Translations under genes and position numbers: made by a program | NCBI GenBank assembly: GCA_001443005.1 | Contig: LEKQ01000001.1 | Span: forward strand, 594,542-658,541 | Source: a bacterium GBS-1 | GTDB lineage: Bacteria > Synergistota > GBS-1 | Reading direction: 5' to 3' | DNA: 64,000 nucleotides | Part shown: positions 13,374 to 55,819 of the stretch, in pieces | Layout: every line of letters starts with the position of its first letter | Numbering within the stretch: position 1 is the stretch's first letter | The notes under the pieces: model-generated | What the model was told of the DNA's origin: nothing | What the model saw: the letters and a program-made list of their open reading frames with translations, nothing else | Databases searched by the model: none

Positions 13374-13597
13374 TCCTCTTCCCCCTCCCGCACCTCAACA
13401 GCATAATCAGGACACCTGAGCTCACAGCTTCTACAACCTACACACATCTCCTCGCGCATAACCCTAACCTTACCATCGCTTGTAAACTCAAAAACCTTCT
13501 TAGGGCAAAACTCTACACATATACCACAAGACTTACACCACTTAGTATTCAGAACAACCTTAAACCTCTTAGTCAAGGCAATCACCCCTTCTTTCAA
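13370..13597 (-). CDS. 2-oxoacid:ferredoxin oxidoreductase delta subunit (2x[4Fe-4S] ferredoxin)
   Basis: 75 aa with two cysteine clusters, CKSCGICVEFCP and CVGCRSCELRCP. Confidence 0.8.
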   Translation of the reverse strand: MKEGVIALTKRFKVVLNTKWCKSCGICVEFCPKKVFEFTSDGKVRVMREEMCVGCRSCELRCPDYAVEVREGEEE

Positions 13598-13602
13598 AGC
13601 GC

Positions 13603-13821
13603 TTAGCCGCCCGACATGATATATGTAACTACTATCTCGTCACCATCCCTAACTATCCTCGAGCTATACTCCCTCCTGGGCAAGACATCCCTATTCAAGA
13701 ACACAGTCATATAAGAGATATCATAACCAAGCTTCTCTAAAAGCTCCCCCACGGTCATCTCACCTTCCAAATTAACTTCCCTATTATTCACCTTAACAAG
13801 CATCTCCTCCATTTCCTCCAA
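13603..13821 (-). CDS. ThiS/MoaD-family small sulfur-carrier-like protein
   Basis: About 66-72 aa ending in GG (…DGDEIVVTYIMSGG); true start probably the ATG giving MLVKVNN... Confidence 0.55.
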   Translation of the reverse strand: MEEMEEMLVKVNNREVNLEGEMTVGELLEKLGYDISYMTVFLNRDVLPRREYSSRIVRDGDEIVVTYIMSGG

Positions 13822-13896
13822 ATAAATTATACTCAGTATACTGTCTACTTCCTAAATCATCAAGGCCACCCTTAAAAGGTATCTTTGGGTTTTTCT

Positions 13897-15552
13897 TCAC
13901 TCCAGGGATCTTCTAACCGCTCCCTTTGACGCGCTCTCAACGAAAAGCCTATAATATCTCAGGTAGCTGTTTTCAGGTATAAAGGAGCGATTGACCTCCT
14001 GTACCTCTCCTTTTCTCCTTTTATATTCTTCCTCTGATATCAATAGGTCTACCCTCTTCCTCCCGAGGTCTATCCTTATAACATCACCATCCCTAACTAT
14101 GGAGAGCGGTCCTCCTGCCGCCGCCTCAGGGGAAACATAAGCTATAGAGATGCCGTAAGAAGCCCCGCTAAGCCTGCCATCGGTTATGAGTGCAACGTTC
14201 TTATATCTATTTATTATCTCAACACACCTATGAAGCTCCCTCATGCCCGGACCTCCACAAGGCCCCTCGTATCTTATGATGATAACCTCCCCATCCTTAA
14301 GGTCATTGCTTGATGCATACTCCATAAACTCATCCTCCGAGTTAAATACCCTAGCTACCCCTTCAAAGGGATCCTTCAAAACGTCCACCAGCGCAGACAC
14401 CTTAAGCAGGGCTCCATCAGGAGCAAGGTTTCCTCTCAAGACTTTTATAGCTCCACCCTTAGCTATGGGGTCGGAAACCGATCTTATGATTGACTTCAAA
14501 GGCCTGAATCCCTCACTCTTCCCAATGATATCCCTCCAGGTATCGTTAAGGACCGTCTTTCTATCAAGGTTAAGATAATCCTTTAGTTCTCTTATCAATG
14601 CAACCACTCCGCCAGAAAAATACAGATCTATAACGGTATTCTCGTCGCTATTGGGAGTAACTTGAGCAATCAGGGGAACACTCTCGCTTATCCTCTCAAA
14701 ATCCTCCATGCTTATCTCTATCCTTAGCTCATGAGCTATGGCAGGAATGTGAAGAACAGCGTTTAGAGAACCACCTATAGCCATAACTACAGCTATTGCA
14801 TCCTCAAAAGCTTCCCTCGTCATTATCGCCGAAGGTTTCAAGCCCATCTCTATTAAGCGAACAGCTTGCTCTCCGGTTAATCTAGCTAAGTTATATCTCT
14901 GACTTGTTCCCGCTGGAGTTAAAGCTGACCCTGGCAATCCCACACCCAAAACCTCAGCTACTATACACATGGTATTTGCCGTTCCCAAAAATGGGCAAAC
15001 ACCTGGACCAGGATAATACCTCTCCGTGATGTCAAGCAGCTCATCCTCGGAGACCTTACCCTCAAGAAAGCTCCTTCTCGCCATCTTGGACTCCTTAGGC
15101 TTGATATAGTTGCACATCGGTCCTGCTCCCAACCAAATAGAGGGAAGGTCTATCCTAGCCATAGCCATAAGCATACCAGGGACGATCTTGTCGCAGGAGG
15201 AGAGAAAAACCAAACCATCGAATATATCGTGTCCCTTCACCATAGATTCTATCGAATCAGCGATCAACTCCCTGCTTGGGAGGCTATATTTCATGCCCTT
15301 ATGCCCCTGAGCTATACCATCGCATATAGCTATCGTGTTGAACTCGATTGGAACTCCACCAGCCTTGTAAACCCCTTCTTTTACCTTCTCGGCCAGGTCT
15401 CTTAAAGGGACATGCCCAGGGACTATTTCGTTCCAAGAGTTGACTATACCTACTATGGGCTTGTTAAGATCCGCTCGGGAAAAACCACAAGAAATTAGAT
15501 GCCCCTTTATAAGCTGTCTAACGTAGTTCGGAAAAGCACTCAATCGGTTCAT
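13897..15552 (-). CDS. IlvD/EDD-family dehydratase, paralog 2
   Basis: [30 protein letters not shown] and [11 protein letters not shown] motifs; 551 aa. Confidence 0.85.
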   Translation of the reverse strand: MNRLSAFPNYVRQLIKGHLISCGFSRADLNKPIVGIVNSWNEIVPGHVPLRDLAEKVKEGVYKAGGVPIEFNTIAICDGIAQGHKGMKYSLPSRELIADSIESMVKGHDIFDGLVFLSSCDKIVPGMLMAMARIDLPSIWLGAGPMCNYIKPKESKMARRSFLEGKVSEDELLDITERYYPGPGVCPFLGTANTMCIVAEVLGVGLPGSALTPAGTSQRYNLARLTGEQAVRLIEMGLKPSAIMTREAFEDAIAVVMAIGGSLNAVLHIPAIAHELRIEISMEDFERISESVPLIAQVTPNSDENTVIDLYFSGGVVALIRELKDYLNLDRKTVLNDTWRDIIGKSEGFRPLKSIIRSVSDPIAKGGAIKVLRGNLAPDGALLKVSALVDVLKDPFEGVARVFNSEDEFMEYASSNDLKDGEVIIIRYEGPCGGPGMRELHRCVEIINRYKNVALITDGRLSGASYGISIAYVSPEAAAGGPLSIVRDGDVIRIDLGRKRVDLLISEEEYKRRKGEVQEVNRSFIPENSYLRYYRLFVESASKGAVRRSLE

Positions 15553-15588
15553 TCAAGATCAACTCCCTCCATGAAGCGAAAATGGCTT

Positions 15589-16479
15589 TCATAGCAAACC
15601 AAGCCTCCTTAAGCCCTCTTTTATCTTTTCCCTTACCTCTTCGCTCGCTGGTCTGAAGGGTTCTCTCGGATACATCTTTATCCCGCGTAGGTTAACCATG
15701 GTATAAGCTCCTACGGTAGTGGTATTAGCGAGCCTCATAAGGTCTCTAACGGCCATCACCCTATTGTGAACCTCTATCACCTTATCCTTAGGGGCACCGC
15801 TCATCACCACATCATAAAGCTCCTTACAAAGCTCTGGAAAAGCGTTACCCAACCCTGGAATAAAGGCTTTGATGCCCAAAGAGGACGCAGGAACAAACAG
15901 AGCCTCGGTTCCTAAAACCACATCGAAGCCTTCTTTTTCTACCTTTCTCTTGAAATCCGATAGGACCATCAAATCGAAGCTACTATCCTTAACACCATGC
16001 ACACCTATATCCGCCAACCTCTTAAGCAAGCCCACGCTAACGGCATACCCGACAGTTTTGGGATTGTTATAAACATAAACAGGCACATTAACTGCATCAA
16101 CGATTCTTTTGAAATAAAATAAGACATCCTCCTCGGCATGATGATAGTAGAAAGGAGGAACCGCTGAAACAGCATCAGCACCTATCTCCTCAGCGTGTTT
16201 AGCGAGCTCAACAGCATCCCTCGTGCTTATGCTTCCCACATGAACAATAACCGGGACCCTCCCCCCGACCTCCTTCACAATTATCTCCGCAACCCTCTTT
16301 CTCTCCTCGAGGCTAAGCAAAGGTCCGCAGCCATAGGTCCCAAGGATGAAAAGGCCATCCACCGTCCCTAAAAGGAAGCTCGTAAAATCCCTCAAAGCTC
16401 CCTCATCTATATCGCCGTTTGCATCGAAGGGAACGATCATCGGCGGAATTACCCCTCTCAACTGGGTGATACCCATCAA
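15589..16479 (-). CDS. DapA/NAL-family class I aldolase or dehydratase (dihydrodipicolinate synthase family; 2-keto-3-deoxy-acid aldolase-like)
   Basis: 296 aa; GVIPPMIVPF..DGLFILGTYGCGPLLSLEER layout typical of DHDPS/KDG-aldolase family. Confidence 0.8.
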   Translation of the reverse strand: MMGITQLRGVIPPMIVPFDANGDIDEGALRDFTSFLLGTVDGLFILGTYGCGPLLSLEERKRVAEIIVKEVGGRVPVIVHVGSISTRDAVELAKHAEEIGADAVSAVPPFYYHHAEEDVLFYFKRIVDAVNVPVYVYNNPKTVGYAVSVGLLKRLADIGVHGVKDSSFDLMVLSDFKRKVEKEGFDVVLGTEALFVPASSLGIKAFIPGLGNAFPELCKELYDVVMSGAPKDKVIEVHNRVMAVRDLMRLANTTTVGAYTMVNLRGIKMYPREPFRPASEEVREKIKEGLRRLGLL

Positions 16480-16498
16480 AACACCCCCTTAAGGATCT

Positions 16499-18028
16499 TC
16501 ATCCCATTGTCTCTTGCAACTCGCTAATCTCCCTAAACTCATCCTGCAGCTTATGATAAATCTTCCAATATATCCTATATAACCTCTCGTATAAAACCCT
16601 TAGCCGCTCATCAGGCTCGATGCAATCGACTAACTGGACGGCCTTGGGAAGGATATCCTCATAGCTTTTTATATACCCAACGCCCCTCATGGCCATAACC
16701 GCTGCACCGAAAGAGGAAGCCTCCTCCATATTAACCCTAACTATTGATCTCCCAAGAACGCTTGATAGAACACCCGCCCAAACTTTAGACCTCATCAAAC
16801 CACCGGTTCCCCTAAGCTCTGTAGGGACGCTAACGACCTCTGAGACCGCCTCATATATACTCCTCATTCGAAAGGCTACACCCTCGATTATCGCCCTCGC
16901 TATATGTCTTCTATCATGGTGAAGCGCAAGACCGAACAAAATTCCTCTAACGTCAGCGTTCCAATAGGGGCCTCTCTCGCCGGTTAAAAAGGGCAAAAGC
17001 AAAAGCCCTCCTGCTCCTGGTTTGACCTCCTGAACCCATCTTTCGGCCTCCCTATAGAGGTCTAGGCCCATTTCTTTCAAATCCTCGTAAAAGCCATCGA
17101 TATACCAAGCCATCACAAGCCCAGCGTTGTTTATGGCGCACCCCACAAGCCAGGTATCCTCATCTAATATGTAACACCACGTTCTTCTTTTCTTATCAGT
17201 CATGGGACCCTTAACGGCCATTCTAACCGCACCGCTCGTTCCGATCATTATAGCCATCTTCCCTTCCCCGATTGAGTTGGAACCTAAAGACGATAAAGCA
17301 CCATCTCCAGCACCTATAACGATGGGAGTTCCCTCCCTTAAACTGGTTATGAGGCTAACTTCCTTAGAGACTTTTCCAACAACGGTTGAGGGGTAAACGG
17401 TCTCGCTCATTTTACCAATACTTATATCGAGGCTATCAAATATGGATTCCTCCCATTTTCTCTTATATATGTTAAGTAAACCGCTACCAGAGGCCACAGA
17501 GATATCGATGGCGAAGACCTTCGCTAAATTCCAAAGAACATACTCCTTTATGGTCATTATCCTATAAGCTTCATCAAGAGCTTGAGGGGTTTCATGCTTA
17601 AACCATATGAGCTTGGCGAGAGGATAGTTCACATGGAGGGGGCAACCTGTAATATCGTAAAGGTAATCAAACCTCTCTCGATAGCTCTTAAGCAGATCGT
17701 TAGACCTATTATCCCCCCAGATAATGAGATTGGTCTTTTTCCTCACATCAGAATCCACTAACATTATGCTGTGAAAAACGCTACTTAAACCTATGGCACC
17801 TATCTCATACTCACCGTTGGCAAGCTCCAAGGATTCCTTTATCGAGCTATATACAGCGGAGACAACCTCGTCAGGATCCTGCTCCACCCAACCAGGCTTA
17901 GGTTGAATAATCCTATAGTTTCTCTTAGCCATCGATATTAATCTTCCATCGCCATCGAAGATACAACATCTCGCCCCGGTTGTTCCTATATCAATACCTA
18001 TGAAAGCCGTCTTAGCCATCATAAACAC
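16499..18028 (-). CDS. FGGY-family carbohydrate kinase
   Basis: N-terminal FIGIDIGTTGARCC and two-domain FGGY layout; about 505 aa. Confidence 0.8.
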   Translation of the reverse strand: MFMMAKTAFIGIDIGTTGARCCIFDGDGRLISMAKRNYRIIQPKPGWVEQDPDEVVSAVYSSIKESLELANGEYEIGAIGLSSVFHSIMLVDSDVRKKTNLIIWGDNRSNDLLKSYRERFDYLYDITGCPLHVNYPLAKLIWFKHETPQALDEAYRIMTIKEYVLWNLAKVFAIDISVASGSGLLNIYKRKWEESIFDSLDISIGKMSETVYPSTVVGKVSKEVSLITSLREGTPIVIGAGDGALSSLGSNSIGEGKMAIMIGTSGAVRMAVKGPMTDKKRRTWCYILDEDTWLVGCAINNAGLVMAWYIDGFYEDLKEMGLDLYREAERWVQEVKPGAGGLLLLPFLTGERGPYWNADVRGILFGLALHHDRRHIARAIIEGVAFRMRSIYEAVSEVVSVPTELRGTGGLMRSKVWAGVLSSVLGRSIVRVNMEEASSFGAAVMAMRGVGYIKSYEDILPKAVQLVDCIEPDERLRVLYERLYRIYWKIYHKLQDEFREISELQETMG

Positions 18029-18043
18029 CTCAAGCTTTAAGAA

Positions 18044-18802
18044 TCAAACTGCCGTCCAGCCTCCGTCCACGAAGATTATCTGACCTGTGATATAAGAAGC
18101 CTCCTTAGAGGCCAAAAAAACCGCAACCCCTTTAAGGTCCTCCAAAGATCCAAACCTACCCAAGGGTATCCTTTTTATCATGCTTTCAAGCCTTTCTCTA
18201 TCGCTGAAGACCGCCTCGGTCATCCTGGTCTTGTACCATCCTGGCGCAATAGCGTTCACCCTTATGCCATACGCCCCCCACTCCTTAGCGAGCGCCTTAG
18301 TTAATGAGCCAACACCGCCCTTTGAAGCAGCATAGGCACATATGTTAGGAACGGTCACCTCAACCACGGTCAAGGAGCAAACGTTGATTATTGAGGGGGA
18401 ATCTGACCTCCTCAGTAATCTAAAAGCCTCCCTACACACGTAAAAGGTCCCAAAGAGATTAACCTCGATTATCTCCCTAAAATCATCGATTGGAAACTCC
18501 TCAGCGGGATACCTCCTATTGATGCCTGCAGCGTTCACAACGACATCAAGCCTACCATAGTTTCTCTCAATATTATCCATTATATTCTTCACTTCATCGT
18601 ATTTCGAGACATCGCATCTTAAGCCCGAAGCTTTAACACCATAGCCTTGACTTATCCTTAGGGCAGTCTCCTTTGCCTCCTCTATGGTCCTGCTAACTAT
18701 CAATACATCGCTTCCCGCCTCGGCGAGCCCCTCAGCGAGAGCCATACCTAATCCCCTTGACCCGCCAGTTACAAGAGAGAGCCTTCCTCTAAGGTTAAAC
18801 AT
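18044..18802 (-). CDS. SDR-family oxidoreductase (KduD/gluconate 5-dehydrogenase-like)
   Basis: TGGSRGLG cofactor motif and YAASKGG catalytic motif. Confidence 0.85.
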   Translation of the reverse strand: MFNLRGRLSLVTGGSRGLGMALAEGLAEAGSDVLIVSRTIEEAKETALRISQGYGVKASGLRCDVSKYDEVKNIMDNIERNYGRLDVVVNAAGINRRYPAEEFPIDDFREIIEVNLFGTFYVCREAFRLLRRSDSPSIINVCSLTVVEVTVPNICAYAASKGGVGSLTKALAKEWGAYGIRVNAIAPGWYKTRMTEAVFSDRERLESMIKRIPLGRFGSLEDLKGVAVFLASKEASYITGQIIFVDGGWTAV

Positions 18803-20276
18803 TTGCCCCCGTTATCCTCCTTCTCCCAAGAATCATTAGCACTATCAATACCCAAAGAATTATACAAATAGGCCTAGTAAAGAAAGGAGTTATGCTTTCA
18901 TTTAACGTCAAAGCCCTTCTTAGGTTCTCATCAGCCATCCTACCCAAAATCAACCCCAGGGTAAATGGAGCGAGAGGATAGCCGTGATTTCTCAGTACGT
19001 AACCTACTAAACCGAAAAGCAAGGTTACGTAGACGTCAAAAATGGAGTGATTCACAGCGTAGGCACCTATAACGCAGAGAGTTATTACTATAGGCATTAA
19101 GATGTCCTTCTTCACCAGCAACACCTTTATAAGTACGTTGCTTATAAGAAGCCCAAAGATAAGAAGCATAAAGTTAGCCAAAACCTGCATAGCAACGTAA
19201 TCATAGAAAAATTGCGGGGACTCAATGAAGATAAGCGGACCTGGCCTTATCCCGTGCAACAATATGCCTCCCAATAAAACGGCAGCAGCTCCGCTACCAG
19301 GTATGCCAAGAGCTATCATCGGAATCGAAGCTCCACCTATGCATGCGTTATTCGCTACCTCACAAGCGATAACCCCTTCCTTGCTCCCCTTACCTATCAT
19401 CTCCCTTTCCACACCGAGATTTTTGACAGCACCATAGCTTACCCAAGCGGCCACATCTTCACCAACGCCAGGAATAACACCGATCAGAATACCTATTATC
19501 GCAGACCTTATGGTCGTCTTCCAGTATCTAAAAACCTCTACTAAGGGAATACTAACCCTGAGCTTCTTAGGATCAACCACTAACTCCCCCTGTTTCGGCT
19601 CCCTCATCACGCAAAAAACCTCGGTTAAACCGAAAAGGCCTATCAAGGCAGGTATCAGAGATATGCCACTCATCAAATTTAGGCTGCCGAAGGTGAACCT
19701 TGGATAGGTGGTCATGTTATCCATACCTATCATAGCGGTCATAAGACCGAGAAAGCCCGTTATCCACCCCTTTAATTGCAACTCACCCATAGACAAGCTT
19801 CCACATATCATCACTCCCATTATGGTCAAAACGAAGAACTCCCAGGAACCAAACTTCAGGGCTATCTTAGCAAGCAAAGGGGTAGAAACAGCCAAGGCTA
19901 AGACGCCTATTAAACCACCCCAGAAGGAAGCTAAACGAGCAAGCCCTAAAGCTTCCCCAGCCATCCCATTCTTAGCTAATTCGTATCCATCTATAGCGGT
20001 AGCTGCAGCTGAAGGGGTACCAGGGATGTTAAGCAAAATGGCACTATTGGATCCTCCATATATACCACCGCAATAGAGAGCTACGAGCATCGGTATGGCA
20101 TATCGAGGGTCCAGACCATAGGTTATACCACTTAAGAGGGCTATACCCATCGTAGCTGTAAGACCAGGTAAAGCCCCGATTATTACCCCAAGGACAGAAG
20201 ATAGTGACATCAAAGATAGCAGCTTTAAGTCAAGAAGACCAACGAAACCATCAAAAAGCCTTAATAAGCTTTCCAC
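18795..20276 (-). CDS. tctA: Tripartite tricarboxylate transporter large permease TctA (copy 1)
   Basis: 493 aa polytopic membrane protein with the GALPGLTATMGIALL motif. Confidence 0.85.
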   Translation of the reverse strand: MESLLRLFDGFVGLLDLKLLSLMSLSSVLGVIIGALPGLTATMGIALLSGITYGLDPRYAIPMLVALYCGGIYGGSNSAILLNIPGTPSAAATAIDGYELAKNGMAGEALGLARLASFWGGLIGVLALAVSTPLLAKIALKFGSWEFFVLTIMGVMICGSLSMGELQLKGWITGFLGLMTAMIGMDNMTTYPRFTFGSLNLMSGISLIPALIGLFGLTEVFCVMREPKQGELVVDPKKLRVSIPLVEVFRYWKTTIRSAIIGILIGVIPGVGEDVAAWVSYGAVKNLGVEREMIGKGSKEGVIACEVANNACIGGASIPMIALGIPGSGAAAVLLGGILLHGIRPGPLIFIESPQFFYDYVAMQVLANFMLLIFGLLISNVLIKVLLVKKDILMPIVITLCVIGAYAVNHSIFDVYVTLLFGLVGYVLRNHGYPLAPFTLGLILGRMADENLRRALTLNESITPFFTRPICIILWVLIVLMILGRRRITGANV

Positions 20277-20300
20277 CTCGATCCCTCCTCAAAGCAGAAC

Positions 20301-20783
20301 TTAGGGCAACCTCACTCCAAGTAAATGTCCAAATGAGTACATCAAGCTCAAACTCACCAAAAGAGCGATCCCGATCGCGACGTGTAGCTTGACACTTTTA
20401 AAGTAAAGATAGGACCCAACTAGATAGAGAAAAGTCGCCAAAGTATAGGGTATCTTCCCCAAAAGAGCAACATAGGCGACCGTTAAAGCTATAAAGACGA
20501 CGAGCCTTTGTGTCTTGAGTCTCTCCTCCCTGCTTCCCTCATTTCTCCCCTTTGACTCCGAGAGGCTCCAACCTTTAAGGTTTCTTTTAAAGATAAACAA
20601 GAGGTAAAACATAAGCGCAGCTGAAAGAACCATAAGAATTGCCGATAAAACTGCGGGGGTAAGACCTGGGGAGTCATGAGGGTCTCCAGTAGGCATCTTT
20701 AGGGATTCAAACAAGCCATAAGCACCGATCAGGAAAACGAAAAGGGCAATCGCAAACTCCCACCACCATCTCTTCCTATCCAT
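20301..20783 (-). CDS. tctB: Tripartite tricarboxylate transporter small subunit TctB (copy 1)
   Basis: 160 aa, four hydrophobic segments, sits between tctC and tctA. Confidence 0.6.
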   Translation of the reverse strand: MDRKRWWWEFAIALFVFLIGAYGLFESLKMPTGDPHDSPGLTPAVLSAILMVLSAALMFYLLFIFKRNLKGWSLSESKGRNEGSREERLKTQRLVVFIALTVAYVALLGKIPYTLATFLYLVGSYLYFKSVKLHVAIGIALLVSLSLMYSFGHLLGVRLP

Positions 20784-20813
20784 CCTGAACTAAATCGCCT
20801 CCCCCTTAAAACA

Positions 20814-20845
20814 GTGCATGGCAGGAGGAAGAACCTGCCATGCAC
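20814..20845 (-). promoter_or_regulatory. Intercistronic stem-loop between tctC and tctB (copy 1): perfect 12-bp inverted repeat, 8-nt loop
   Basis: GTGCATGGCAGG-aggaagaa-CCTGCCATGCAC read directly from the sequence; no downstream U-tract. Confidence 0.5.
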
Positions 20846-20869
20846 CCATCTCTATCTAAGGGTCCAAAC

Positions 20870-21877
20870 TTACTCCGGCTTAGGAATCTTGAAATCCTCA
20901 GGAGATTTCTTCGCAAGCTTCAACTCATGTAAGAGCCAGCTAACCAAAGATGTCTCTCTCTTAGCGTACTCCTCAGACTTCTGCCTATCATAGCCAAGAT
21001 AAACCATGGCCTGCTTCTGTACGAACTCCTTGAACTTAGGAGACTGAACGGCCTTAGCGTATGCCTTATCTATCGCATCTACAACCTCTTGAGGAACATC
21101 CCTAGGAACTGCTATGCCCCACCAACCACCGAAAGGTAGATATTTCTTAATATCAGGAGCCCACTTCGCCACAGTGGGAACCTTACCTACGCCCTCTATC
21201 TCAATATCCTCGTCATTGAACGTCGCAAGGATCCTAAGCTGGCCACCCTTTATCAAATCTATGGCCTCCATTAAGCCTGGAATTCCCGCTTTCGTCTCCC
21301 CTGCCACAGCCGCGGCAGCAGCCGCACGACCGCTGGGATAAACCACTATCTTAAAGTCCCCTCCAACAGATTTCTTAAGCATCTCCAAAGCTATATGCCA
21401 CCCGTTGGCTATACCAGAGTTAGCAAGGGTTAAGTCCTTCCCCATCTCCTTCATAGCCTTAATGAAATCATCCATGGTCTTTATGGGAGAATCGGGCTTA
21501 ACGCATATGGTCGCTACACCAGCAGCAGCGATCCACATATGAAAGTCCTTATAAGAGAAGGGACCAAGGTCCATCACCTGATACATCCTTATGTTATCTG
21601 AGAGTCCTAACCAAATATAACCATCATGAGGCTGACCCATGACGTAAGCTGTCGCAACAGCTCCAGTGGCCCCAGGCATATTTATGACATTAATAGGAAC
21701 CCCTAGGATCTGCTGCATCTCTGCCGCCAATGCTCTATTGACCTGGTCTGTTGCTCCACCCGCACCGAACTGAACTATAACGGTTATAGGTCTCGTTGGA
21801 TAGGCAGCCCATCCCATACCTGCGAAGACACCCACGAACAAGCCCAACACCGCCAACATAACAAGAGCCTTCTTCAT
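20870..21877 (-). CDS. tctC: Tripartite tricarboxylate transporter substrate-binding protein TctC (Bug family; copy 1)
   Basis: Signal peptide followed by AAYPTRPITVIVQFGAGGATD Bug-family motif. Confidence 0.85.
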   Translation of the reverse strand: MKKALVMLAVLGLFVGVFAGMGWAAYPTRPITVIVQFGAGGATDQVNRALAAEMQQILGVPINVINMPGATGAVATAYVMGQPHDGYIWLGLSDNIRMYQVMDLGPFSYKDFHMWIAAAGVATICVKPDSPIKTMDDFIKAMKEMGKDLTLANSGIANGWHIALEMLKKSVGGDFKIVVYPSGRAAAAAAVAGETKAGIPGLMEAIDLIKGGQLRILATFNDEDIEIEGVGKVPTVAKWAPDIKKYLPFGGWWGIAVPRDVPQEVVDAIDKAYAKAVQSPKFKEFVQKQAMVYLGYDRQKSEEYAKRETSLVSWLLHELKLAKKSPEDFKIPKPE

Positions 21878-21901
21878 CTTTCTTCCCCCCTTTAGATTAA
21901 T

Positions 21902-21919
21902 TTCTTAAAGCTTTAAGAA
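21902..21919. promoter_or_regulatory. Perfect 18-bp palindrome TTCTTAAAGCTTTAAGAA just upstream of the tctC (copy 1) Shine-Dalgarno; candidate operator
   Basis: Read directly; near-identical palindrome lies in the same position upstream of tctC copy 2. Confidence 0.4.
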
Positions 21920-21954
21920 CCTCTTCCTTTTCACATCACCTCCCTCTACGGCTT

Positions 21955-23109
21955 TTACATGGCAGATCTGCATATCTGGATCAGATCTTCCAAGGTAGGA
22001 GTTCTCGGATTAATGGGTATCCCAACGTTACTCATCGCCTCACGACATATATCTTCAATGGCATCCTCTTTGACGCCTACCTCTCTTAGCCCTGCCGGTA
22101 TACCCACATCTCTACACAAAGCCTTTACCGCCTCAACCGCCCTACGTGCAGCCTGAAGCTCCGTAAGACCGGAAACGCTCTCTCCCAACGCTTCAGCTAT
22201 CTTAGCAAACTTAGAAAGGTTGCCAATGAGATTAAACTCCATACCATAGGGTAATAGGATAGCGTTTATCACACCATGAGGCACGTCGAAGTACCCACCC
22301 ATAACAGCTGTGATAGCGTGAATAACGCCCAAGCGCGTATTTGCGAAAGCCAAGGCTGCCATCGTGCTTCCTAAGAGCATGTTATAGCGAGCTTCAATAT
22401 TATCCCCCTTAGCATAGGCAGCCCTCAGATACTTTCCAATAAGATAGATAGCGTGATAGGCAAGCGACTCCGATATAGGCTCAGTTACAACGTTCGTGAA
22501 GGACTCTATAGCGTGAGTTAGAGCATCTAAACCAGTAGCAGCGGTCACGCTTGGCGGCATACTCAAGGTTAGAAGGGGGTCGCAAACCGCAATGTGAGGA
22601 GCGATCTTAGGATTACCTATGCCCATCTTAACTTTCTTCTTGGTATCCTTTATCACCGTCACCCAAGTTATCTCGCTACCTGTGCCAGCCGTAGTAGGAA
22701 CGGCAATGAGAGGAAGTATCCTGTTCTTCGGAGGGTTCTTCCAAAAGTAGGCTATCTCCCCCTCGTTAGTTAAAAGTAGACCGATCGCCTTAGCGGTGTC
22801 TATCGAGCTTCCTCCCCCAATCGCCAATAGGAGATCACACCCAAACTCCCGAGCAACTTTAACTCCCTCCTCGACTATCTCAACCGTCGGATTAGGCTCA
22901 ACTTTAGAGAAAACCTCAGTTCTAAAGCCAGCAATATCCAACTTGGCCTTTATGCCATTTACGATGTTCGTGCACATCAATCCCGGATCCGTAACTATTA
23001 AGACGCTCTTTCCGCCCAGTTCGTTAACCCTGTCTACTATTTTTTCGGCCTCTCCTATCCCAAAATACAACTTAGTCGGAATCTGCCAAACGAAGGGCTT
23101 AACAAACAT
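21955..23109 (-). CDS. Iron-containing alcohol dehydrogenase (Fe-ADH family)
   Basis: 384 aa; GGGSSIDTAKAIG motif and Fe-ADH layout. Confidence 0.85.
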   Translation of the reverse strand: MFVKPFVWQIPTKLYFGIGEAEKIVDRVNELGGKSVLIVTDPGLMCTNIVNGIKAKLDIAGFRTEVFSKVEPNPTVEIVEEGVKVAREFGCDLLLAIGGGSSIDTAKAIGLLLTNEGEIAYFWKNPPKNRILPLIAVPTTAGTGSEITWVTVIKDTKKKVKMGIGNPKIAPHIAVCDPLLTLSMPPSVTAATGLDALTHAIESFTNVVTEPISESLAYHAIYLIGKYLRAAYAKGDNIEARYNMLLGSTMAALAFANTRLGVIHAITAVMGGYFDVPHGVINAILLPYGMEFNLIGNLSKFAKIAEALGESVSGLTELQAARRAVEAVKALCRDVGIPAGLREVGVKEDAIEDICREAMSNVGIPINPRTPTLEDLIQICRSAM

Positions 23110-23325
23110 GCTATCCCCCCTCTATACTTTATTATTGTGATAATATCATCCATCCAAACAAATCTATCCTTATCCGCCAACGGAACAACATTCGCTATTT
23201 CTAAATGATATCTTAACATAAGCACCCGACAGCGTCAAGCCATGTTCGTATACCCAGTATGCTTGGATTAATGGTAATACCTCAACTATTTCGCATATAG
23301 GAGAATCTTTTAGATTCTCTCTATC

Positions 23326-24795
23326 TTAGTCCTTTAATTTACGCACCACCTTCCAAATAGATGGTCCTAAAAGGGTTAAAACTATAAGAGAAAACAAGAT
23401 TAAAGATATGGGACGGGTTAGGAAAGGGATAATGCTACCACCTGACTTTATAAGCCCTATACGGAGATTGTCCTCGATCATCCTACCAAGGATTAGAGCT
23501 AAAACCATTGGAGCAAGAGGCATGTTTATTTTCTCCATAACGTAGCCGAGTAAGCCAAACAGCGCCATTAGCCATATATCGAAGACGCTGTTTCTTATGG
23601 CGTAGGAGCCTACCATGGAAAACAGAACCACAGCACTCATAACTACACCTGCTCTAAGGCTAACCAAGCGAGAAAAGGCCTTTATCCCCAGCCACCCAAC
23701 CGGTAAAAGCATTATCTGCACCAGCAGGGCTACAGCGAAAATCTGATATACCAAATCCTTAGATTGAGCGAAGATGAGCGGTCCAGGCTTCAAGCCATAC
23801 ATCAGCATAGCGCCTAGGACTATCGCAGTTATAGAATCGCCAGGTATCCCCAGTGCCAGTGCAGGGATCCAAGTTCCACCTATAGCAGCATTATTCGCAC
23901 TGGTTGGAGCTATAACGCCACGGGGGCTACCGGAACCTATCTCATTACCACTAAGGCTTTTTTCCGCTCCATAGGCAACCCATGCAGCGATGTCCGCCCC
24001 CGCTCCAGGAAGAGCACCTATGAAAGTCCCTATCAAAGAGCTCCTTATTATAATGAACTTATTGCGATACATAAGCTTTAAAGCCTCAAGCACATCCAAC
24101 TTCCCATTGATTTTAACGCTTGGTAAGTCCAAGCTCTCCCTAAAGGACAATCTCTTCAATACCTCGGAAATTCCAAAAAGTCCTATCATAGCTGGGATAA
24201 AGCTAACACCATCCATCAGCTCCGTGATCCCAAAGGTAAACCTGGGATATCCCGTGGTGACATCTATACCTATGGTAGATATGAGAAGCCCAAACAAGGC
24301 TGAAAGAAGCCCCTTGATGGTATTACCTCTACTTAAAACGGCAGCCATGCTTAAACCAAAGACCCCCAACCAGAAATACTCGAAGTGCGTGAACTTCAAG
24401 GCTACCTCAGCTAACGGGGGAGCAGTGAAGATCAATATCAAAACCCCTATCAATCCTCCAAGAGCAGAACAGAAGAGATCCAAAGTTAAGGCTAAAGCTC
24501 CTTTACCCTTCTTATTCATCTCAAAGCCATCTAAAACCGCTGCCCCAGAGGCTGGCGTACCCGGAATCCTTAAGAAGGTCGCGGGAATATCGCCTGCAAA
24601 TATGGCGGTGAAGGAAACACCTATAACCATAGCCAAACCCGTTAGGGGCTCCATGTAATAGGTCAATGGTATTATGAGAGCTACGGCCATCGTAGCCGTA
24701 AGGCCAGGCATAGCGCCCACGAAAACGCCAAAGGCCATTGAAAGCAAAAGCGGAAAAAGAACCTTTAAGGAAAGGATGGATAAAAGATAAGACAT
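23326..24795 (-). CDS. tctA: Tripartite tricarboxylate transporter large permease TctA (copy 2)
   Basis: 489 aa; GAMPGLTATMAVALI motif; paralog of copy 1. Confidence 0.85.
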   Translation of the reverse strand: MSYLLSILSLKVLFPLLLSMAFGVFVGAMPGLTATMAVALIIPLTYYMEPLTGLAMVIGVSFTAIFAGDIPATFLRIPGTPASGAAVLDGFEMNKKGKGALALTLDLFCSALGGLIGVLILIFTAPPLAEVALKFTHFEYFWLGVFGLSMAAVLSRGNTIKGLLSALFGLLISTIGIDVTTGYPRFTFGITELMDGVSFIPAMIGLFGISEVLKRLSFRESLDLPSVKINGKLDVLEALKLMYRNKFIIIRSSLIGTFIGALPGAGADIAAWVAYGAEKSLSGNEIGSGSPRGVIAPTSANNAAIGGTWIPALALGIPGDSITAIVLGAMLMYGLKPGPLIFAQSKDLVYQIFAVALLVQIMLLPVGWLGIKAFSRLVSLRAGVVMSAVVLFSMVGSYAIRNSVFDIWLMALFGLLGYVMEKINMPLAPMVLALILGRMIEDNLRIGLIKSGGSIIPFLTRPISLILFSLIVLTLLGPSIWKVVRKLKD

Positions 24796-24802
24796 CTACA
24801 CT

Positions 24803-25294
24803 CTACCCCCTTAAGAGTGAAAATATAACTCCCTCAGGTAAGGGTAGCTTAAATATAACCTTGAAAATCCAATGGATTAACAAAGCCAAGACTACAGAAT
24901 AAACTAGAGATGAAAACCACCTAACTCTCATAAATCGCATTAGGAAAACTCCCAAGAGCGTTATACCAATCACGCTTCCGAAAATCTTCAGAACCGGGTA
25001 AAAGAGAAACCCCACACCTATGATAATTACGAAGCTCAAGCTTTTATATAAGCTGACGCCTTTAAATAGCGATGATCTCAATTCCTCCCTCGCTTTAAAT
25101 AGAGAGGTCAAACCAGATACAAAAAAGTAAAAACCAAAGATCAAGATCAAAAAAGCTAAGAGATCCGGGAAAAAGCTCGGTCCAGGCAACTTTTCCCCTC
25201 TTACCGTAAACTTCGGGAAAAACCTGGAATGGTAAAAAACGAAGCCTGATAAAGCGAAACAGCTCAAACTCAATATAAGGTCACTCCACCCCAT
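24803..25294 (-). CDS. tctB: Tripartite tricarboxylate transporter small subunit TctB (copy 2)
   Basis: 163 aa hydrophobic protein in the tctCBA position. Confidence 0.6.
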   Translation of the reverse strand: MGWSDLILSLSCFALSGFVFYHSRFFPKFTVRGEKLPGPSFFPDLLAFLILIFGFYFFVSGLTSLFKAREELRSSLFKGVSLYKSLSFVIIIGVGFLFYPVLKIFGSVIGITLLGVFLMRFMRVRWFSSLVYSVVLALLIHWIFKVIFKLPLPEGVIFSLLRG

Positions 25295-25320
25295 TTAGCC
25301 ACAATCCCCCTTTAAAGGCG

Positions 25321-25350
25321 GGGCAAGCTCGTGGGAACGAGCTTGCCCCA
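25321..25350 (-). promoter_or_regulatory. Intercistronic stem-loop between tctC and tctB (copy 2): perfect 12-bp inverted repeat, 6-nt loop
   Basis: GGGGCAAGCTCG-tgggaa-CGAGCTTGCCCC; same position and architecture as copy 1. Confidence 0.5.
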
Positions 25351-25362
25351 AAGAGAATACCT

Positions 25363-26337
25363 TTACTTCTTAAGATATCCGCCTAGCTCGAGAACCGTCT
25401 TCCAAGCTTTATCCTGCTCCTCAACGAATTTCCTGAACTCCTCTCCCCTTCTTACCTTTATACCAAAGCCATTGGTTTCCATGAACTTCTTGAAAGCTTC
25501 AGAGTTAGCTATCTCAATAATGGCATCCTCGAGCTTCTTCTTTATCTCAGCAGGGGTTCCTTTAGGAACACCCACACCCCTCCACGTACCAGCGCTCCAG
25601 TTAATACCGAGCTCCTTTAAGGTCGGTACATCTGGGAATGCAGGAAGCCTCTCATCGGCCATAACAGCGAGAGCTCGAGCCTGACCGCTCTTTATATAAG
25701 GAGCGGCTTCCGCCAACGAACAGGTAACCACGTGGACATGCCCACCTAAAAGCTCGGTCAAAGCTTGAGCAGCGCCCGTGGTAGACGGAATCCACTTAAC
25801 GGAATCCACAGGCAAACCAGCAGCGTGAAGCATACCTATCCTAGCTAAATCCCATATCCCACCCGCTGCGACGCCGGAGAAAAGAAGCTTACCTGGATTA
25901 GCCTTTATATCGTCCAGTAGCTCCTTGAGATTCTTCCATGGGGCATCGGCCTTGACCGTTACTCCTGCAGCATCCTCGTTAACCTGAGCTATATAGTCGA
26001 AAGCCTCATAGGTTAGGTCCGTGAGGCCCATCCAGTGCATTGTGGCTAACTCCAATGTCACGATGGTTATGGTGTATCCGTCTGGGGGTGCATAAGCACC
26101 AGCGGCGTGCCCCACCGCTCCACCGCCACCCGTTTTGTTAACCACAGTGAAGGGCTGACCAAACTTCTTAGAAAGCTCATCTGCCAAAAATCGAGCAAGC
26201 CTGTCGGTGCCCCCACCAGCACCCCAAGGACAGATAACCGTAACCGCCTTCTCTGGATAGGCCGCCCACGCGCTTAAGGTAAAGACCCACGTAAACCCCA
26301 TAACCGCCAAAACTACCACCCATAAAAGCTTCTTCAT
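25363..26337 (-). CDS. tctC: Tripartite tricarboxylate transporter substrate-binding protein TctC (Bug family; copy 2)
   Basis: Signal peptide followed by AAYPEKAVTVICPWGAGGGTD Bug-family motif. Confidence 0.85.
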   Translation of the reverse strand: MKKLLWVVVLAVMGFTWVFTLSAWAAYPEKAVTVICPWGAGGGTDRLARFLADELSKKFGQPFTVVNKTGGGGAVGHAAGAYAPPDGYTITIVTLELATMHWMGLTDLTYEAFDYIAQVNEDAAGVTVKADAPWKNLKELLDDIKANPGKLLFSGVAAGGIWDLARIGMLHAAGLPVDSVKWIPSTTGAAQALTELLGGHVHVVTCSLAEAAPYIKSGQARALAVMADERLPAFPDVPTLKELGINWSAGTWRGVGVPKGTPAEIKKKLEDAIIEIANSEAFKKFMETNGFGIKVRRGEEFRKFVEEQDKAWKTVLELGGYLKK

Positions 26338-26523: not shown

Positions 26524-26997
26524 TTAAAAGCACCTTTTTCTGAGATTAAACCTTCTTAAAATGGGCAGAAACATGCCTCCAACGAGAGCTAACGCCCCAA
26601 GAGCGCCGGGCCTGGAGGAGATTTCACAACCGCCGCACCACCAGTCAAAGTCAACCCTTATGCTACGAGGCCCCCACCATGTAGAATGACCGTATTCATC
26701 CTCAACCTTAACGCATACATCGTACCACCCCTCGTACCACACCCTATACCATAGAGTGTCGCTCCACTCCACCTCAACGCCATTCACATACCATGTATAG
26801 TAAATGTAATCACCATCAGGATCATAGGCTTCAACGCGCCCCTTTATGATCGCATATTCATCACACCAATCGTATTCGTAATAATCCACATCCAACCAAA
26901 CGTTCGTTATTATAGGAGGCGAGTTCTGCCCCAAAGCATATCCAGATATACATAAGAGCAAGACAAGGGAAACAAGCGATATCTTAAGCCCCTTCAA
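26524..26997 (-). CDS. Small secreted W/Y-rich PKD-like domain protein with a C-terminal hydrophobic/basic tail
   Basis: N-terminal signal peptide (MKGLKISLVSLVLLLCISGYALG); DPDGDYIYYTWYVNG PKD-like core; tail CGGCEISSRPGALGALALVGGMFLPILRRFNLRKRCF; 4-nt overlap with upstream gene. Confidence 0.5.
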   Translation of the reverse strand: MKGLKISLVSLVLLLCISGYALGQNSPPIITNVWLDVDYYEYDWCDEYAIIKGRVEAYDPDGDYIYYTWYVNGVEVEWSDTLWYRVWYEGWYDVCVKVEDEYGHSTWWGPRSIRVDFDWWCGGCEISSRPGALGALALVGGMFLPILRRFNLRKRCF

Positions 26998-28232
26998 ATG
27001 AAACTTCCTCCCTTAGCGCGTTCCATCAAATCAAGGAGAACTTCAACCACCTTTTGAGCAAACTCAGGATCATTTATGTTGTTATCGAGCTCGTAAACTG
27101 GTATCCCAGGTCTAAGATTAGCCTTTATCGAATCGAAGCAAGCCCTATCAGCCTCAGGATCCCAGAAGGCTTGACCAGGACTGTCAAGCATGGAAACACC
27201 CTTTAGCGGTATAAGCACGGCCACCGGCCCCTTGCTTTCGTTCGCCGCCCTAGCTATCCACTCCCCTATGGCTTTGTTTTCTTCAACGTTCGTCCTAACC
27301 AAGGTGACATTAGGATTCCACTCGTATATCTTTCTGCCCCTATACTTCTCCGGAACCGTATCTTTCGCCCAGAAATTGATCATATCGACACAACCCGGAA
27401 CTAAAACGGCAGGGATACCTCTTCTTGCAGCAGCAAAGAGCCTATCCTTCCCCGCCGATAGAACCCCTCCACCTATCTCATCAGCTAACTCCGTAGTCGT
27501 TATATCAGCCACAGCTGAAACCAAGCCCTGATCAATGAGCATCTCCATGGTTCTCCCACCGGTCCCAGTAGCGTGAAACACCAGTATCTCAAAGCGATCG
27601 CCCAAAAGCTCTTTAACCTTCTCGACGCACGGTGTCGTGTTCCCAAACATGCTTATAACTATAACTGGCTTCTCAGGCTCCTTAAGCATCTCCTCATAGG
27701 CACCATGCTCAAGCATCCCCGCGAGCGCCCCCACGGCGTTCTTATAAATCGCCCTGCTAATCCTATTTAAGCCAGCCACATCAACTATTGAGGGAAACAT
27801 CACTATATCCTTAATCCCAACATATCGAGATACATCTCCACCAGCAACCGTAGACACCATCACCTTAGGAATACCTATGGGCAAAGCTTGCATGGCCGTT
27901 GTGGCTATTATGGTCCCAGCGCTTCCTCCCATACCAAGTATGCCATGAAGATTCCCTTCATCATATAACCTCCTAACTACCTCCTTAAGCCCCTTGGTCA
28001 TCGTATCCATCGCTAAGCTCTTATCCTTTTTCGCCTGGAGCTCCTCTATGCTCACTCCCCCCGCCTTTGCCACCTCTGCCCTCGTTATATCTGGTTCGAA
28101 GAAGGGCTTCCCCATCACACCAAAATCAACCACAATAACCTCAAAACCAGAGCTCTTGAGCAGATCCCTAACGTAGGCAAAATCCTGCCCTTTGGTATCT
28201 AAGGCACCGACTAAAACAACCTTCTTAGTCAT
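26994..28232 (-). CDS. Tm-1-like / UPF0261-family protein
   Basis: 412 aa; N-terminal MTKKVVLVGALDTKG and overall resemblance to UPF0261; recognised from memory of the family. Confidence 0.6.
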   Translation of the reverse strand: MTKKVVLVGALDTKGQDFAYVRDLLKSSGFEVIVVDFGVMGKPFFEPDITRAEVAKAGGVSIEELQAKKDKSLAMDTMTKGLKEVVRRLYDEGNLHGILGMGGSAGTIIATTAMQALPIGIPKVMVSTVAGGDVSRYVGIKDIVMFPSIVDVAGLNRISRAIYKNAVGALAGMLEHGAYEEMLKEPEKPVIVISMFGNTTPCVEKVKELLGDRFEILVFHATGTGGRTMEMLIDQGLVSAVADITTTELADEIGGGVLSAGKDRLFAAARRGIPAVLVPGCVDMINFWAKDTVPEKYRGRKIYEWNPNVTLVRTNVEENKAIGEWIARAANESKGPVAVLIPLKGVSMLDSPGQAFWDPEADRACFDSIKANLRPGIPVYELDNNINDPEFAQKVVEVLLDLMERAKGGSFI

Positions 28233-28247
28233 ACTATCCTCCCTCCC

Positions 28248-29087
28248 CTAACGAGCAAGCCTCAGCGACTTAAAGGCCTCAACCTGCGCTTTTATCGCCC
28301 TCTCTGTAGGCAGGCGCTCGATGCTTGAAGCGCCAAAGAACCCCACGACACCAGGCATCATCGCAAGAGCCTTACCCACATTCTCAGGCTCATCGAAAGG
28401 CCCTCCATGGCATATCACCAGTATATCCTTTCTAACTCTCTTAGCAGCTTCAGCGATAGACATCACCTTCTCAACGGCTTGCTCCAAGGTCATGGCCACA
28501 CCAGCTCCTATCGTACCACCGGTAGTTAAACCAACATGAGCAACGATAACATCAGCACCAGCCTTAACCATCTCAACGGCCTGGTCCTCATCAAACACAT
28601 AGGGTGTGGTAAACATATCAAGCTCATGAGCTATCCTTATCATCTCGATCTCCTTATCATACCCCATACCTGTGGCCTCAAGGTTAGCCCTGAAGTTACC
28701 GTCAATTAGACCAACAGTTGGGAAGTTCTGAACGCCGGAGAAACCCATTTCCTTAAGCTCCCTTAAGAAAACGGGCATAAGCCTAAAGGGATCTGTGCCG
28801 CAAACGCCAGCCAAAACAGGGGTGTTTTTCACAACCGGCAAGACCTCCCTCGCCATCTCAACAACTATAGCGTTAGCATCACCATAGGGCATAAGACCCG
28901 CTAGGGAACCTCTCCCACCCATCCTGAATCGACCAGAATTATAGATAACTATCAGATCTATTCCACCAGCCTCAGCCATCTTCGCGGATATCCCTGTTCC
29001 AGCTCCACCACCCACTATGGGCCTTCCAGCCTCGATCTGAGCGTGAAGGCGAGCTAATATTTCTTCCCTCGTAAAACCGATCTTCAT
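28248..29087 (-). CDS. PEP hydrolase-like TIM-barrel protein (usual partner of UPF0261)
   Basis: About 280 aa; start set to the ATG (MKIGF...) preceded by GGAGGTG; track ORF extends to a GTG at 29096. Confidence 0.6.
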
Positions 29088-29124: not shown

Positions 29125-29154
29125 ATTATAAAGCTTAGACAATCTTTATATCAA
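29125..29154 (-). promoter_or_regulatory. Candidate promoter for the long minus-strand array (upstream of the PEP hydrolase-like gene)
   Basis: Minus strand reads TTGATA (29154-29149), 18-bp spacer, TATAAT (29130-29125); lies in the divergent gap shared with the eamA-like gene. Confidence 0.35.
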
Positions 29155-45560: not shown

Positions 45561-45587
45561 GCTCCTTAAACCTCCCAAGACAATTAT

Positions 45588-45618
45588 AGGGGACTTCAAC
45601 CCGGGGTTGAAGTCCCCT
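45588..45618 (-). terminator. 31-bp near-perfect palindrome / hairpin downstream of hppA and upstream of dnaG
   Basis: AGGGGACTTCAACC-cgg-GGTTGAAGTCCCCT, 14-bp stem; no clear U-tract, so terminator function is uncertain. Confidence 0.4.
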
Positions 45619-45652
45619 ATGGGTTTAAGCTAAAGTTAGATGATCTTCAAAA

Positions 45653-47605: not shown

Positions 47606-47621
47606 TTAAAGCACCTCCCCT

Positions 47622-52154: not shown

Positions 52155-52156
52155 TA

Positions 52157-55813: not shown

Positions 55814-55819
55814 TTCCCC

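Follow-up and report, generated by a model that had tools for sequence, protein, structure and literature searches.

The stretch of DNA analysed here, hereafter the window, comprises 64,000 nucleotides (nt) of the forward strand of contig LEKQ01000001.1 (assembly GCA_001443005.1, positions 594,542 to 658,541) from the uncultured thermophile GBS-1. Its G+C content is 45.7%, and its sequence matches contigs of metagenomes from Great Boiling Spring at 77 °C. The window is devoid of rRNA, tRNA and Rfam features. The element under study is a gene for a small secreted protein of 157 amino acids (aa), which combines a PKD-type domain with a three-part C-terminal tail. An earlier note on this DNA had compared this tail with C-terminal sorting signals of the exosortase/rhombosortase type. 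The gene and the features that adjoin it are the following:

29125–29154, minus strand: promoter-like sequence TTGATA-18-TATAAT (11/12 matches in a consensus scan; pattern match only), located 5' of the three-gene unit
28248–29087, minus strand: PEP_hydrolase-like TIM-barrel protein (Pfam PF09370), 279 aa as called, first gene of the unit
26994–28232, minus strand: UPF0261 / Tm-1-like ATP-binding protein (Pfam PF06792 and PF23189), 412 aa
27007–27012, minus strand: Shine-Dalgarno sequence GGGAGG, 9 nt 5' of the TTG start and within the end of the UPF0261 gene, as seen in the sequence
26994–26997, minus strand: 4-nt overlap TTGA, formed by the TTG start of the small gene (26997–26995) and the TGA stop of the UPF0261 gene (26996–26994)
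26524–26997, minus strand: gene for the 157-aa secreted PKD-type protein with the three-part C-terminal tail (stop codon 26524–26526), delimited from the open reading frame (ORF) list, the sequence and the orthologs
23326–26337, minus strand: TctC-TctB-TctA tripartite tricarboxylate-type transporter (Pfam), 186 nt past the small gene

Orthologs were sought by a word-indexed search of 5.8 billion proteins and then via synteny with the better-conserved UPF0261 gene. Besides itself, the small protein matched only two relatives in the protein search, P0002 and P0003, with 56–57% identity and E values of 3e-48 and 9e-48. Homologs of UPF0261 at 84–86% identity led to contigs with further versions of the small gene. 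In total, six lineages carry the small protein; these versions share 51–60% identity with the window protein, and their alignment contains 56 invariant columns. The orthologs of L026 and L017 are 79% identical to each other. Across related lineages, the small protein is only 51–56% identical while UPF0261 reaches 84–86%; so much faster a divergence would be usual for exposed surface proteins. Outside the clade, the closest UPF0261 locus, with 69% identity, belongs to an Anaerolineae metagenome-assembled genome (MAG) and lacks the small gene. A family-profile scan of genome contigs yielded one MAG only, JASKLF01, labelled 'bacterium' and an unclassified GTDB species representative, and the same scan of metagenome contigs yielded only two contigs, both already reached by other routes; neither scan revealed new neighbours, clients or proteases. 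The phylum labels of the relatives' MAGs are inconsistent ('bacterium 42_11', 'Chloroflexi bacterium', 'Synergistetes bacterium'). The small gene is real, conserved and restricted to this clade.

One apparent variant of the tail was discarded. The deviant C-terminus of P0005 (…LPYFKKV) originates from contig L022, which differs from the window gene by only three single-base insertions, most likely assembly errors. At L022:10001–10474 (contig Ga0065718_1002360), these insertions result in the truncated and variant proteins P0005 and P0008. The UvrD gene at L002:4503–6388, which is broken into three ORFs, likewise looks like an assembly indel error and not like biology.

Judging from its start signals, the small gene is the third, translationally coupled gene of the PEP_hydrolase-like/UPF0261 unit, and this coupling is conserved in the clade. 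The earlier note had proposed coupling to the Tm-1-like gene, and the 4-nt TTG/TGA overlap supports it. Overlaps of the form [T/G]TGA occur in five of the six lineages, namely in the window, L016, L001/L008, L017/L024/L025, and L026, and an equivalent of the window Shine-Dalgarno sequence, GGAGG(TG), precedes every ortholog. There is no in-frame ATG before residue 142 of the window protein, so that its signal peptide requires the TTG start. The sole lineage without the overlap is L020. For its ortholog (L020:11208–11720), no ATG, GTG or TTG yields a signal peptide, and the called start lies inside the hydrophobic core. A CTG located 5 nt past AAAGGAGG, just 3' of the UPF0261 stop, would yield a normal signal peptide, LKKHIFKGFSIVIGIILVLGVTSLVSA followed by QNS.

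All contigs of sufficient length retain the order PEP_hydrolase-like gene, UPF0261, small gene; on the 1.4-kb contig of L016, only an upstream gene without annotation is visible, and it overlaps the start of the small gene. The description of the surrounding genes as a catabolic operon in the earlier note was an assumption; the PEP_hydrolase-like/UPF0261 pair is without known function.

The protein that precedes the tail consists of two parts:

26929–26997, minus strand: signal peptide, residues 1–23 (MKGLKISLVSLVLLLCISGYALG, followed by QNS), with the n-h-c layout
26644–26928, minus strand: mature ectodomain, residues 24–118, a single divergent PKD-type immunoglobulin (Ig)-like beta-sandwich, acidic, with one Cys pair (C45 and C95)

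In the window protein, the signal peptide starts with MKGLK and continues with a hydrophobic core and ALG, the predicted cleavage site preceding QNS. A signal peptide occurs in all six lineages, with A or V at position -3, G, S or A at position -1, and invariant Q24 and N25. This cleavage-site pattern, read from sequence, bears out the proposal that the small protein is secreted. No conserved lipobox Cys was present in the six-lineage alignment of this region, and the AlphaFold2 model contains a helix over residues 2–24. The peptide is predicted to be of the Sec type and should be cleaved by signal peptidase I before Q24.

The ectodomain is acidic (20 D+E versus 6 K+R) and exceptionally rich in aromatic residues. 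W, Y and F constitute 25–29% of the ectodomain across lineages (about 26% in the window protein), as compared with about 8% in the long ORFs of the window. For Trp and Tyr separately, the values are about 10% and 14% versus 0.9% and 3.1%, respectively. In the five lineages analysed for this feature, 18 aromatic columns are conserved. The Pfam PKD model scored 11.5 bits, below its gathering score of 23.5, and sub-threshold PKD matches were also obtained for four of five orthologs (best E value 0.017). Relationship to PKD repeats was evident at the profile level. Namely, an exhaustive search with the family profile against 1.84 billion representatives retrieved a set of 843 proteins (E ≤ 1e-3), in which as many as 20 repeats per protein were matched. 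All seven of the top hits that were scanned have Pfam PKD-family matches (PKD, PKD_3, PKD_4 or K319L-like PKD), six of them above the gathering score, and three of the seven carry type IX secretion system (T9SS) tails. AlphaFold2 modelled the core of the ectodomain with a predicted local distance difference test score (pLDDT) above 90. A beta-sandwich fold of the PKD type and, at the profile level, homology to PKD repeats were therefore both found, which, together with the aromatic content, agrees with the PKD-like, W/Y-rich core described in the earlier note. Fold neighbours of the ectodomain include domains similar to carbohydrate-binding modules (CBM-like) and accessory domains of glycoside hydrolases; a sequence search of the PDB with the small protein gave marginal matches only (E values 0.04–0.08).

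With known PKD domains (PF00801, PF18911, PF16820; PKD1 of Vibrio cholerae PrtV, 4l9d; clostridial ColG/ColH), the small protein shares the DPDGD...YTW signature, and its profile retrieves hundreds of multi-PKD surface proteins. Unlike those, which are repeats within large enzymes or adhesins, it stands alone as a single domain; it has YTWYVNG in place of the usual WDFGDG, and its Trp/Tyr content is exceptional. Speculatively, the most plausible role of the aromatic-rich domain would be in binding or adhesion, with a glycan or another surface ligand as its target.

Exactly two Cys residues are present in the ectodomain of every lineage. One of them, C45 (26863–26865), is invariant. In five lineages, its presumed partner is located on a variable loop rich in Trp and Tyr. 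The window protein has a loop 5–6 residues shorter than that of the orthologs and without the Cys, and its second Cys is C95 (26713–26715). This looks like a single disulfide with a relocated partner Cys in the window protein. If both ectodomain Cys pair with each other, then the two Cys of the tail motif would form a separate unit.

A giant multi-PKD protein matched by the family profile, P0147 (3137 aa), ends in a canonical-looking MYXO-CTERM tail (…GSGCACATSPAPARLPWAPLLALVGALGALWLRRR). PKD modules and Cys-type tails do, therefore, occur together elsewhere.

The C-terminal tail of the window protein was divided, on the basis of the alignment, into the following parts:

26626–26643, minus strand: signature W119-W120-C121-G-G-C124, consensus W-[W/Y]-C-G-G-(G)-C, following an invariant VDFD; invariant in six lineages
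26605–26625, minus strand: polar spacer EISSRPG, residues 125–131; 7–13 Ser/Gly-rich residues in the orthologs
26557–26604, minus strand: hydrophobic segment ALGALALVGGMFLPIL, residues 132–147; 13–16 aa across the family
26527–26556, minus strand: basic C-terminal cluster RRFNLRKRCF, residues 148–157

The layout of a GGC motif, a hydrophobic helix and a basic cluster, noticed earlier in the single sequence, is thus conserved in six lineages. The invariant residues of the tail cluster in VDFDW[WY]CGG(G)C and in one Pro of the hydrophobic segment, with variation in the spacer and in the remainder of the segment. The spacing of the two Cys also differs among lineages (CGGC versus CGGGC). The hydrophobic segment contains Gly or Pro in every lineage and is mostly Gly-rich; P145 is invariant, and two Pro occur in the segments of L017 and L026, which span 13–14 residues. 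All tails end in RR, KK or KR and then zero to eight residues. The window extension, RRFNLRKRCF, is the longest, and the orthologs terminate in RRG, KKL, KRLKRL or KRLKRP. In the AlphaFold2 model, pLDDT values are below 50 over residues 121–131, and short helices are present over residues 134–147. As far as the alignment indicates, the tail is conserved beyond the needs of a generic anchor, with both the CGG(G)C motif and a Pro being invariant. A hydrophobic segment of 13–16 residues with Gly and Pro would also be a poor permanent helix anchor.

Whole proteins and isolated tails were scanned against 18,950 NCBIfam models at E ≤ 10. The curated cutoffs of the two models that matter here are 20 bits (MYXO-CTERM, TIGR03901) and 27 bits (JDVT-CTERM, NF033191). 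The scores obtained were:

Window protein: MYXO-CTERM 10.9 bits; JDVT-CTERM no hit
Window tail alone: MYXO-CTERM 14.2 bits; JDVT-CTERM no hit
P0002, whole: MYXO-CTERM 15.6 bits; JDVT-CTERM no hit
P0002 tail alone: MYXO-CTERM 19.6 bits; JDVT-CTERM 10.3 bits
P0003, whole: MYXO-CTERM 11.7 bits; JDVT-CTERM no hit
P0003 tail alone: MYXO-CTERM 15.8 bits; JDVT-CTERM 16.9 bits
L017 and L020, whole and tail alone: MYXO-CTERM no hit; JDVT-CTERM no hit

MYXO-CTERM was the sole model of the entire set to match the window protein and P0002. P0003 and its tail matched MYXO-CTERM, JDVT-CTERM and, faintly, a myxosortase-dependent M36 model. The PEP-CTERM, PGF-CTERM, GlyGly-CTERM and Synerg-CTERM models and that of CGP-CTERM gave no match in these scans, in which the HMMER filters may hide very weak matches.

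The origin of the MYXO-CTERM score was examined with in-silico variants of the P0002 tail. Replacement of the second Cys, or of both Cys, by Ser abolished the match, as did deletion or shuffling of the motif. The match was kept, with 20.5 bits, after replacement of the first Cys only, and changing RR to EE reduced the score by only about 3 bits. The invariant Cys of the MYXO-CTERM model aligns with the second Cys of the tail motif. These results indicate that the match rests on a Cys motif at the right distance from a hydrophobic stretch, and not merely on a hydrophobic segment followed by basic residues.

Sorting of Cys-type signals by CPBP proteases was defined computationally in 2023 (10.1101/2023.06.07.544157), and the activity of MrtX was shown experimentally in 2025 (PMC11980579). 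Four Cys-containing signals are predicted substrates of the CPBP/Rce1-type glutamic intramembrane proteases MrtX/C/P, MrtJ, MrtS, and MrtA (10.1101/2023.06.07.544157). Guo, Haft and Wall demonstrated by experiment that the TraA MYXO-CTERM is cleaved by MrtX and that this cleavage depends on Cys (PMC11980579). According to Haft (10.1101/2023.06.07.544157), conserved residues inside the transmembrane part of a signal point to recognition by an intramembrane protease, and signal and enzyme co-evolve, so that lineage-specific models are needed. MYXO-CTERM signals often contain two nearby Cys (GCGC) and occur on 3–73 clients per genome (10.1101/2023.06.07.544157).

The tail of the small protein shares with MYXO-CTERM, the signal of myxosortases MrtX/MrtC/MrtP, a Cys/Gly-rich signature, small polar residues, a hydrophobic segment and a basic end on a secreted protein. 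The signature of MYXO-CTERM contains an invariant Cys; in our family, C121 and C124 are both invariant. MYXO-CTERM is also the best-scoring sorting model for the window protein, P0002 and most of the isolated tails, the P0003 tail preferring JDVT-CTERM. The two differ in the composition of the end, which is Arg-rich in MYXO-CTERM, whereas L020, L017 and L026 use Lys or mixed Lys/Arg.

JDVT-CTERM (NF033191, MrtJ), the second-best model match, is likewise a Cys-type three-part signal whose hydrophobic segment contains conserved residues, Pro among them, and it typically has one client per genome. However, it contains a single Cys and a near-invariant Asp-Pro nine residues on, while the family studied here has two Cys and no DP. 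Furthermore, the Pro is located near the end of the segment, no protease gene is adjacent, and the best score, 16.9 bits, lies far below the cutoff of 27. Synerg-CTERM (TIGR04564, MrtS) and CGP-CTERM (TIGR04288, MrtA) resemble our tail in having an invariant Cys after a Ser/Gly-rich stretch, and Synerg-CTERM also has an invariant Pro inside the hydrophobic segment. The occurrence of CGP-CTERM in Thermococcales demonstrates that Cys-type signals do exist in hyperthermophiles. Both signals are shorter, however, and their Cys abuts the hydrophobic segment, whereas our tail has a spacer of 7–13 residues and no CGP. In PEP-CTERM, PGF-CTERM and GlyGly-CTERM, the signature also abuts the hydrophobic segment; the tail studied here has a spacer between the two and neither a PEP nor a PGF motif. 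Since a defining feature fails in each named class, the tail is a member of none. The view that it could not be assigned to a named class is consistent with this outcome, the search against the named models having given no match at cutoff level.

Our best reading is that the nearest known relatives of the tail are the Cys-type signals of CPBP/myxosortase proteases and not the exosortase/rhombosortase signals. Of the resemblance proposed in the earlier note, the sorting-signal-like layout was retained and the class was revised, because only MYXO-CTERM and JDVT-CTERM respond, in both cases below cutoff. We tentatively favour the interpretation that the tail is a lineage-specific, MYXO-CTERM-like signal in which Cys is modified before intramembrane cleavage, as the leading candidate rather than as a probable one. 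In this scheme, the exported protein would be retained in the cytoplasmic membrane by its hydrophobic segment, the basic end facing the cytoplasm. C124, the second Cys of the motif, would be modified, probably by lipidation. The hydrophobic segment and the basic end could then be removed by a glutamic intramembrane protease of the CPBP/Rce1 type, with its gene at another place in the genome, so that the PKD domain would be left tethered to the envelope via its new C-terminus. A true sorting signal of this kind would extend Cys-type CPBP-protease sorting to a new thermophilic lineage and would possess a distinct signature, CGGGC plus spacer plus Pro, for which there is no NCBIfam model.

Several observations weigh against this interpretation. 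No natural sequence of the family reaches the curated cutoff of any sorting-signal model, and the tails of L017 and L020, which stand for three of the six lineages (L026 itself was not scanned), match no such model. The hydrophobic segment of MYXO-CTERM is devoid of Pro and of charged residues, while P145 is invariant here, and MYXO-CTERM is restricted to Myxococcota and Bradymonadales, while the host of our protein is an uncultured thermophile and not a myxobacterium. Further, what defines a sorting signal is its presence on unrelated proteins, together with co-occurrence with its enzyme; here, the tail is known from a single protein family. Candidate clients were surveyed with tail hidden Markov models (HMMs) and regular expressions in all ORFs of 40 or more codons from the window and from 26 loci. 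Within these approximately 140 kb of this and related genomes, which correspond to only a few percent of a genome, the tail was found on the orthologs only, and a single unrelated CGGC occurred in a NifU-like protein. This leaves one client family in the scanned sequence, as opposed to the numbers typical of MYXO-CTERM genomes. A search with a tail-only profile among the 5.8 billion proteins was uninformative: 13 word-sharing candidates were obtained, with no match even to the protein's own family.

The processing enzyme was sought in the precomputed Pfam annotation, which covers nearly the whole window and about 5.6 kb past its low-coordinate end. No PF02517/CPBP, exosortase or rhomboid gene was annotated in the window, its flanks or the related loci. 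The enzyme of a multi-client housekeeping system would not be expected in the vicinity of the gene, while in JDVT-CTERM, a single-client Cys-type system, the protease gene was adjacent in 16 of 17 cases (10.1101/2023.06.07.544157). If the system served one client only, the fact that none of the six lineages has a protease next to the gene would therefore count against the proposed processing.

The most serious rival, which stands close behind the sorting signal and which we regard as quite conceivable, is a plain type I membrane protein. Here, the signal peptide would be removed and the C-terminal segment would be a permanent anchor oriented by the positive-inside rule. The CGG(G)C motif would be a membrane-proximal structural, redox or metal-binding feature, such as a small disulfide loop, and neither cleavage nor lipidation would take place. 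The confinement of the tail to one protein family fits this explanation, as does the result of the 140-kb survey, which gave neither a second client nor a candidate protease. So do the model matches, all of which are below cutoff and lacking for the tails of L017 and L020, and the contiguity of the motif with the conserved end of the domain, VDFDWW, so that it could belong to the fold. A permanent anchor is harder to reconcile with a hydrophobic stretch that is short, contains Gly/Pro everywhere and retains an invariant Pro. The alternation between CGGC and CGGGC argues against a precise CxxC redox or metal site, and the response to Cys-type models is specific and dependent on the second Cys. 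The motif was also modelled with pLDDT values below 50, not within the sandwich. If the tail does no more than anchor, the small protein would be a membrane protein of an ordinary kind, confined to this clade and distinguished by the unusual aromatic content of its PKD domain.

A different question, compatible with either mode of anchoring, is whether the small protein serves its neighbours as an extracytoplasmic partner, that is, as a ligand-capturing or scaffolding module for TctCBA or for the PEP_hydrolase-like/UPF0261 pathway. We consider this rather unlikely. The gene order is kept in all six lineages and the start/stop overlap in five, a single strong promoter-like site is located upstream of the unit, and a conserved aromatic-rich surface is typical of ligand-binding beta-sandwich modules. 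On the other hand, the adjacency of TctCBA to the small gene is limited to the lineages of the window and L020. In L001, L017, L024 and L026, the next gene is 2-phosphosulfolactate-phosphatase-like, and outside the two lineages a CRISPR-Cas cluster follows too. The UPF0261 locus of the Anaerolineae MAG lacks the small gene, and UPF0261 is far slower to diverge than the small protein. Between the small gene and tctC, neither an intrinsic terminator nor an RNA structure of unusual stability was detected, and the 186-nt spacer contains a weak promoter-like site. With TctCBA adjacency confined to two lineages, the stable association is that with UPF0261 and the PEP_hydrolase-like gene. The conserved coupling of a surface protein to the Tm-1-like/PEP_hydrolase-like pair offers a small but concrete clue to both families.

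A bolder version of the favoured sorting signal appears improbable. According to it, the tail would found a new Cys-type signal, in a deep-branching group of uncultured thermophilic bacteria, served by an undescribed branch of CPBP/myxosortase proteases, and its sole, operon-coupled client would be a Trp/Tyr-rich PKD receptor in a Tm-1-like/PEP_hydrolase-like pathway. If true, this would provide the first functional handle on both families.

Recognition of the tail by an exosortase/archaeosortase or a rhombosortase, with the Gly-Gly of the motif acting as a GlyGly-CTERM signature, is very improbable. The GlyGly-CTERM (TIGR03501) layout consists of Gly-Gly, small residues, a hydrophobic segment and basic residues, and the GG or GGG, small residues, hydrophobic segment and basic residues of our tail match it in general terms. 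Yet no model of these classes responded at E ≤ 10, with the same reservation about HMMER filters; there is no P-E-P or P-G-F motif, 7–13 spacer residues are found where the signature should abut the segment, and the window contains no exosortase or rhomboid gene.

Finally, the explanation of the small gene as a chance ORF or annotation artefact, suggested by its non-ATG start and by Pfam matches that are all below threshold, can safely be dismissed in view of the amino-acid conservation over six lineages with 56 invariant columns, the conserved Shine-Dalgarno sequence and coupling, the confident beta-sandwich model and the 843 PKD-type proteins matched by the family profile.

The transporter genes next to the small gene are part of a larger array. 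Two complete TctC-TctB-TctA sets are arranged in tandem on the minus strand of the window (18795–26337), at 25363–26337/24803–25294/23326–24795 and at 20870–21877/20301–20783/18795–20276. A gene for an iron-type alcohol dehydrogenase is located between the two sets, and genes for a short-chain dehydrogenase and an FGGY kinase follow. A 222-aa ATG ORF at 23990–24658 (plus strand), antisense within tctA, translates into low-complexity sequence rich in Pro, Ser and Lys; it is almost certainly a shadow ORF.

In several relatives, CRISPR-Cas genes come after the ortholog and a gene for a ComB-like phosphatase (L017:12597–17941; L024:3539–8834; L008:about 11100–20400). This cluster encodes Cas6, an unannotated protein of 435–449 aa, a 593-aa AEP-TOTE (primase-polymerase-like) protein, Cas1, and Cas2. 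The position of the AEP-type protein next to Cas1-Cas2 may be noteworthy. At 17.6–18.8 kb of L008, repeated 'VAIPFSSGSFST' translations suggest a CRISPR array.

In another part of the window (43800–63396), the gene order is phoH, 7TM-HD (pgpH-like), ybeY, CNNM/CorC, DUF502, DUF881, cdd, era, recO, glyQ, glyS, PPDK regulator, PPDK, HD, H+-PPase, dnaG, and sigA. We take this order to follow closely the phoH...era-recO...glyQS...dnaG-sigA region of Bacillus subtilis; it hints at an affinity of this lineage with Firmicutes-like bacteria.

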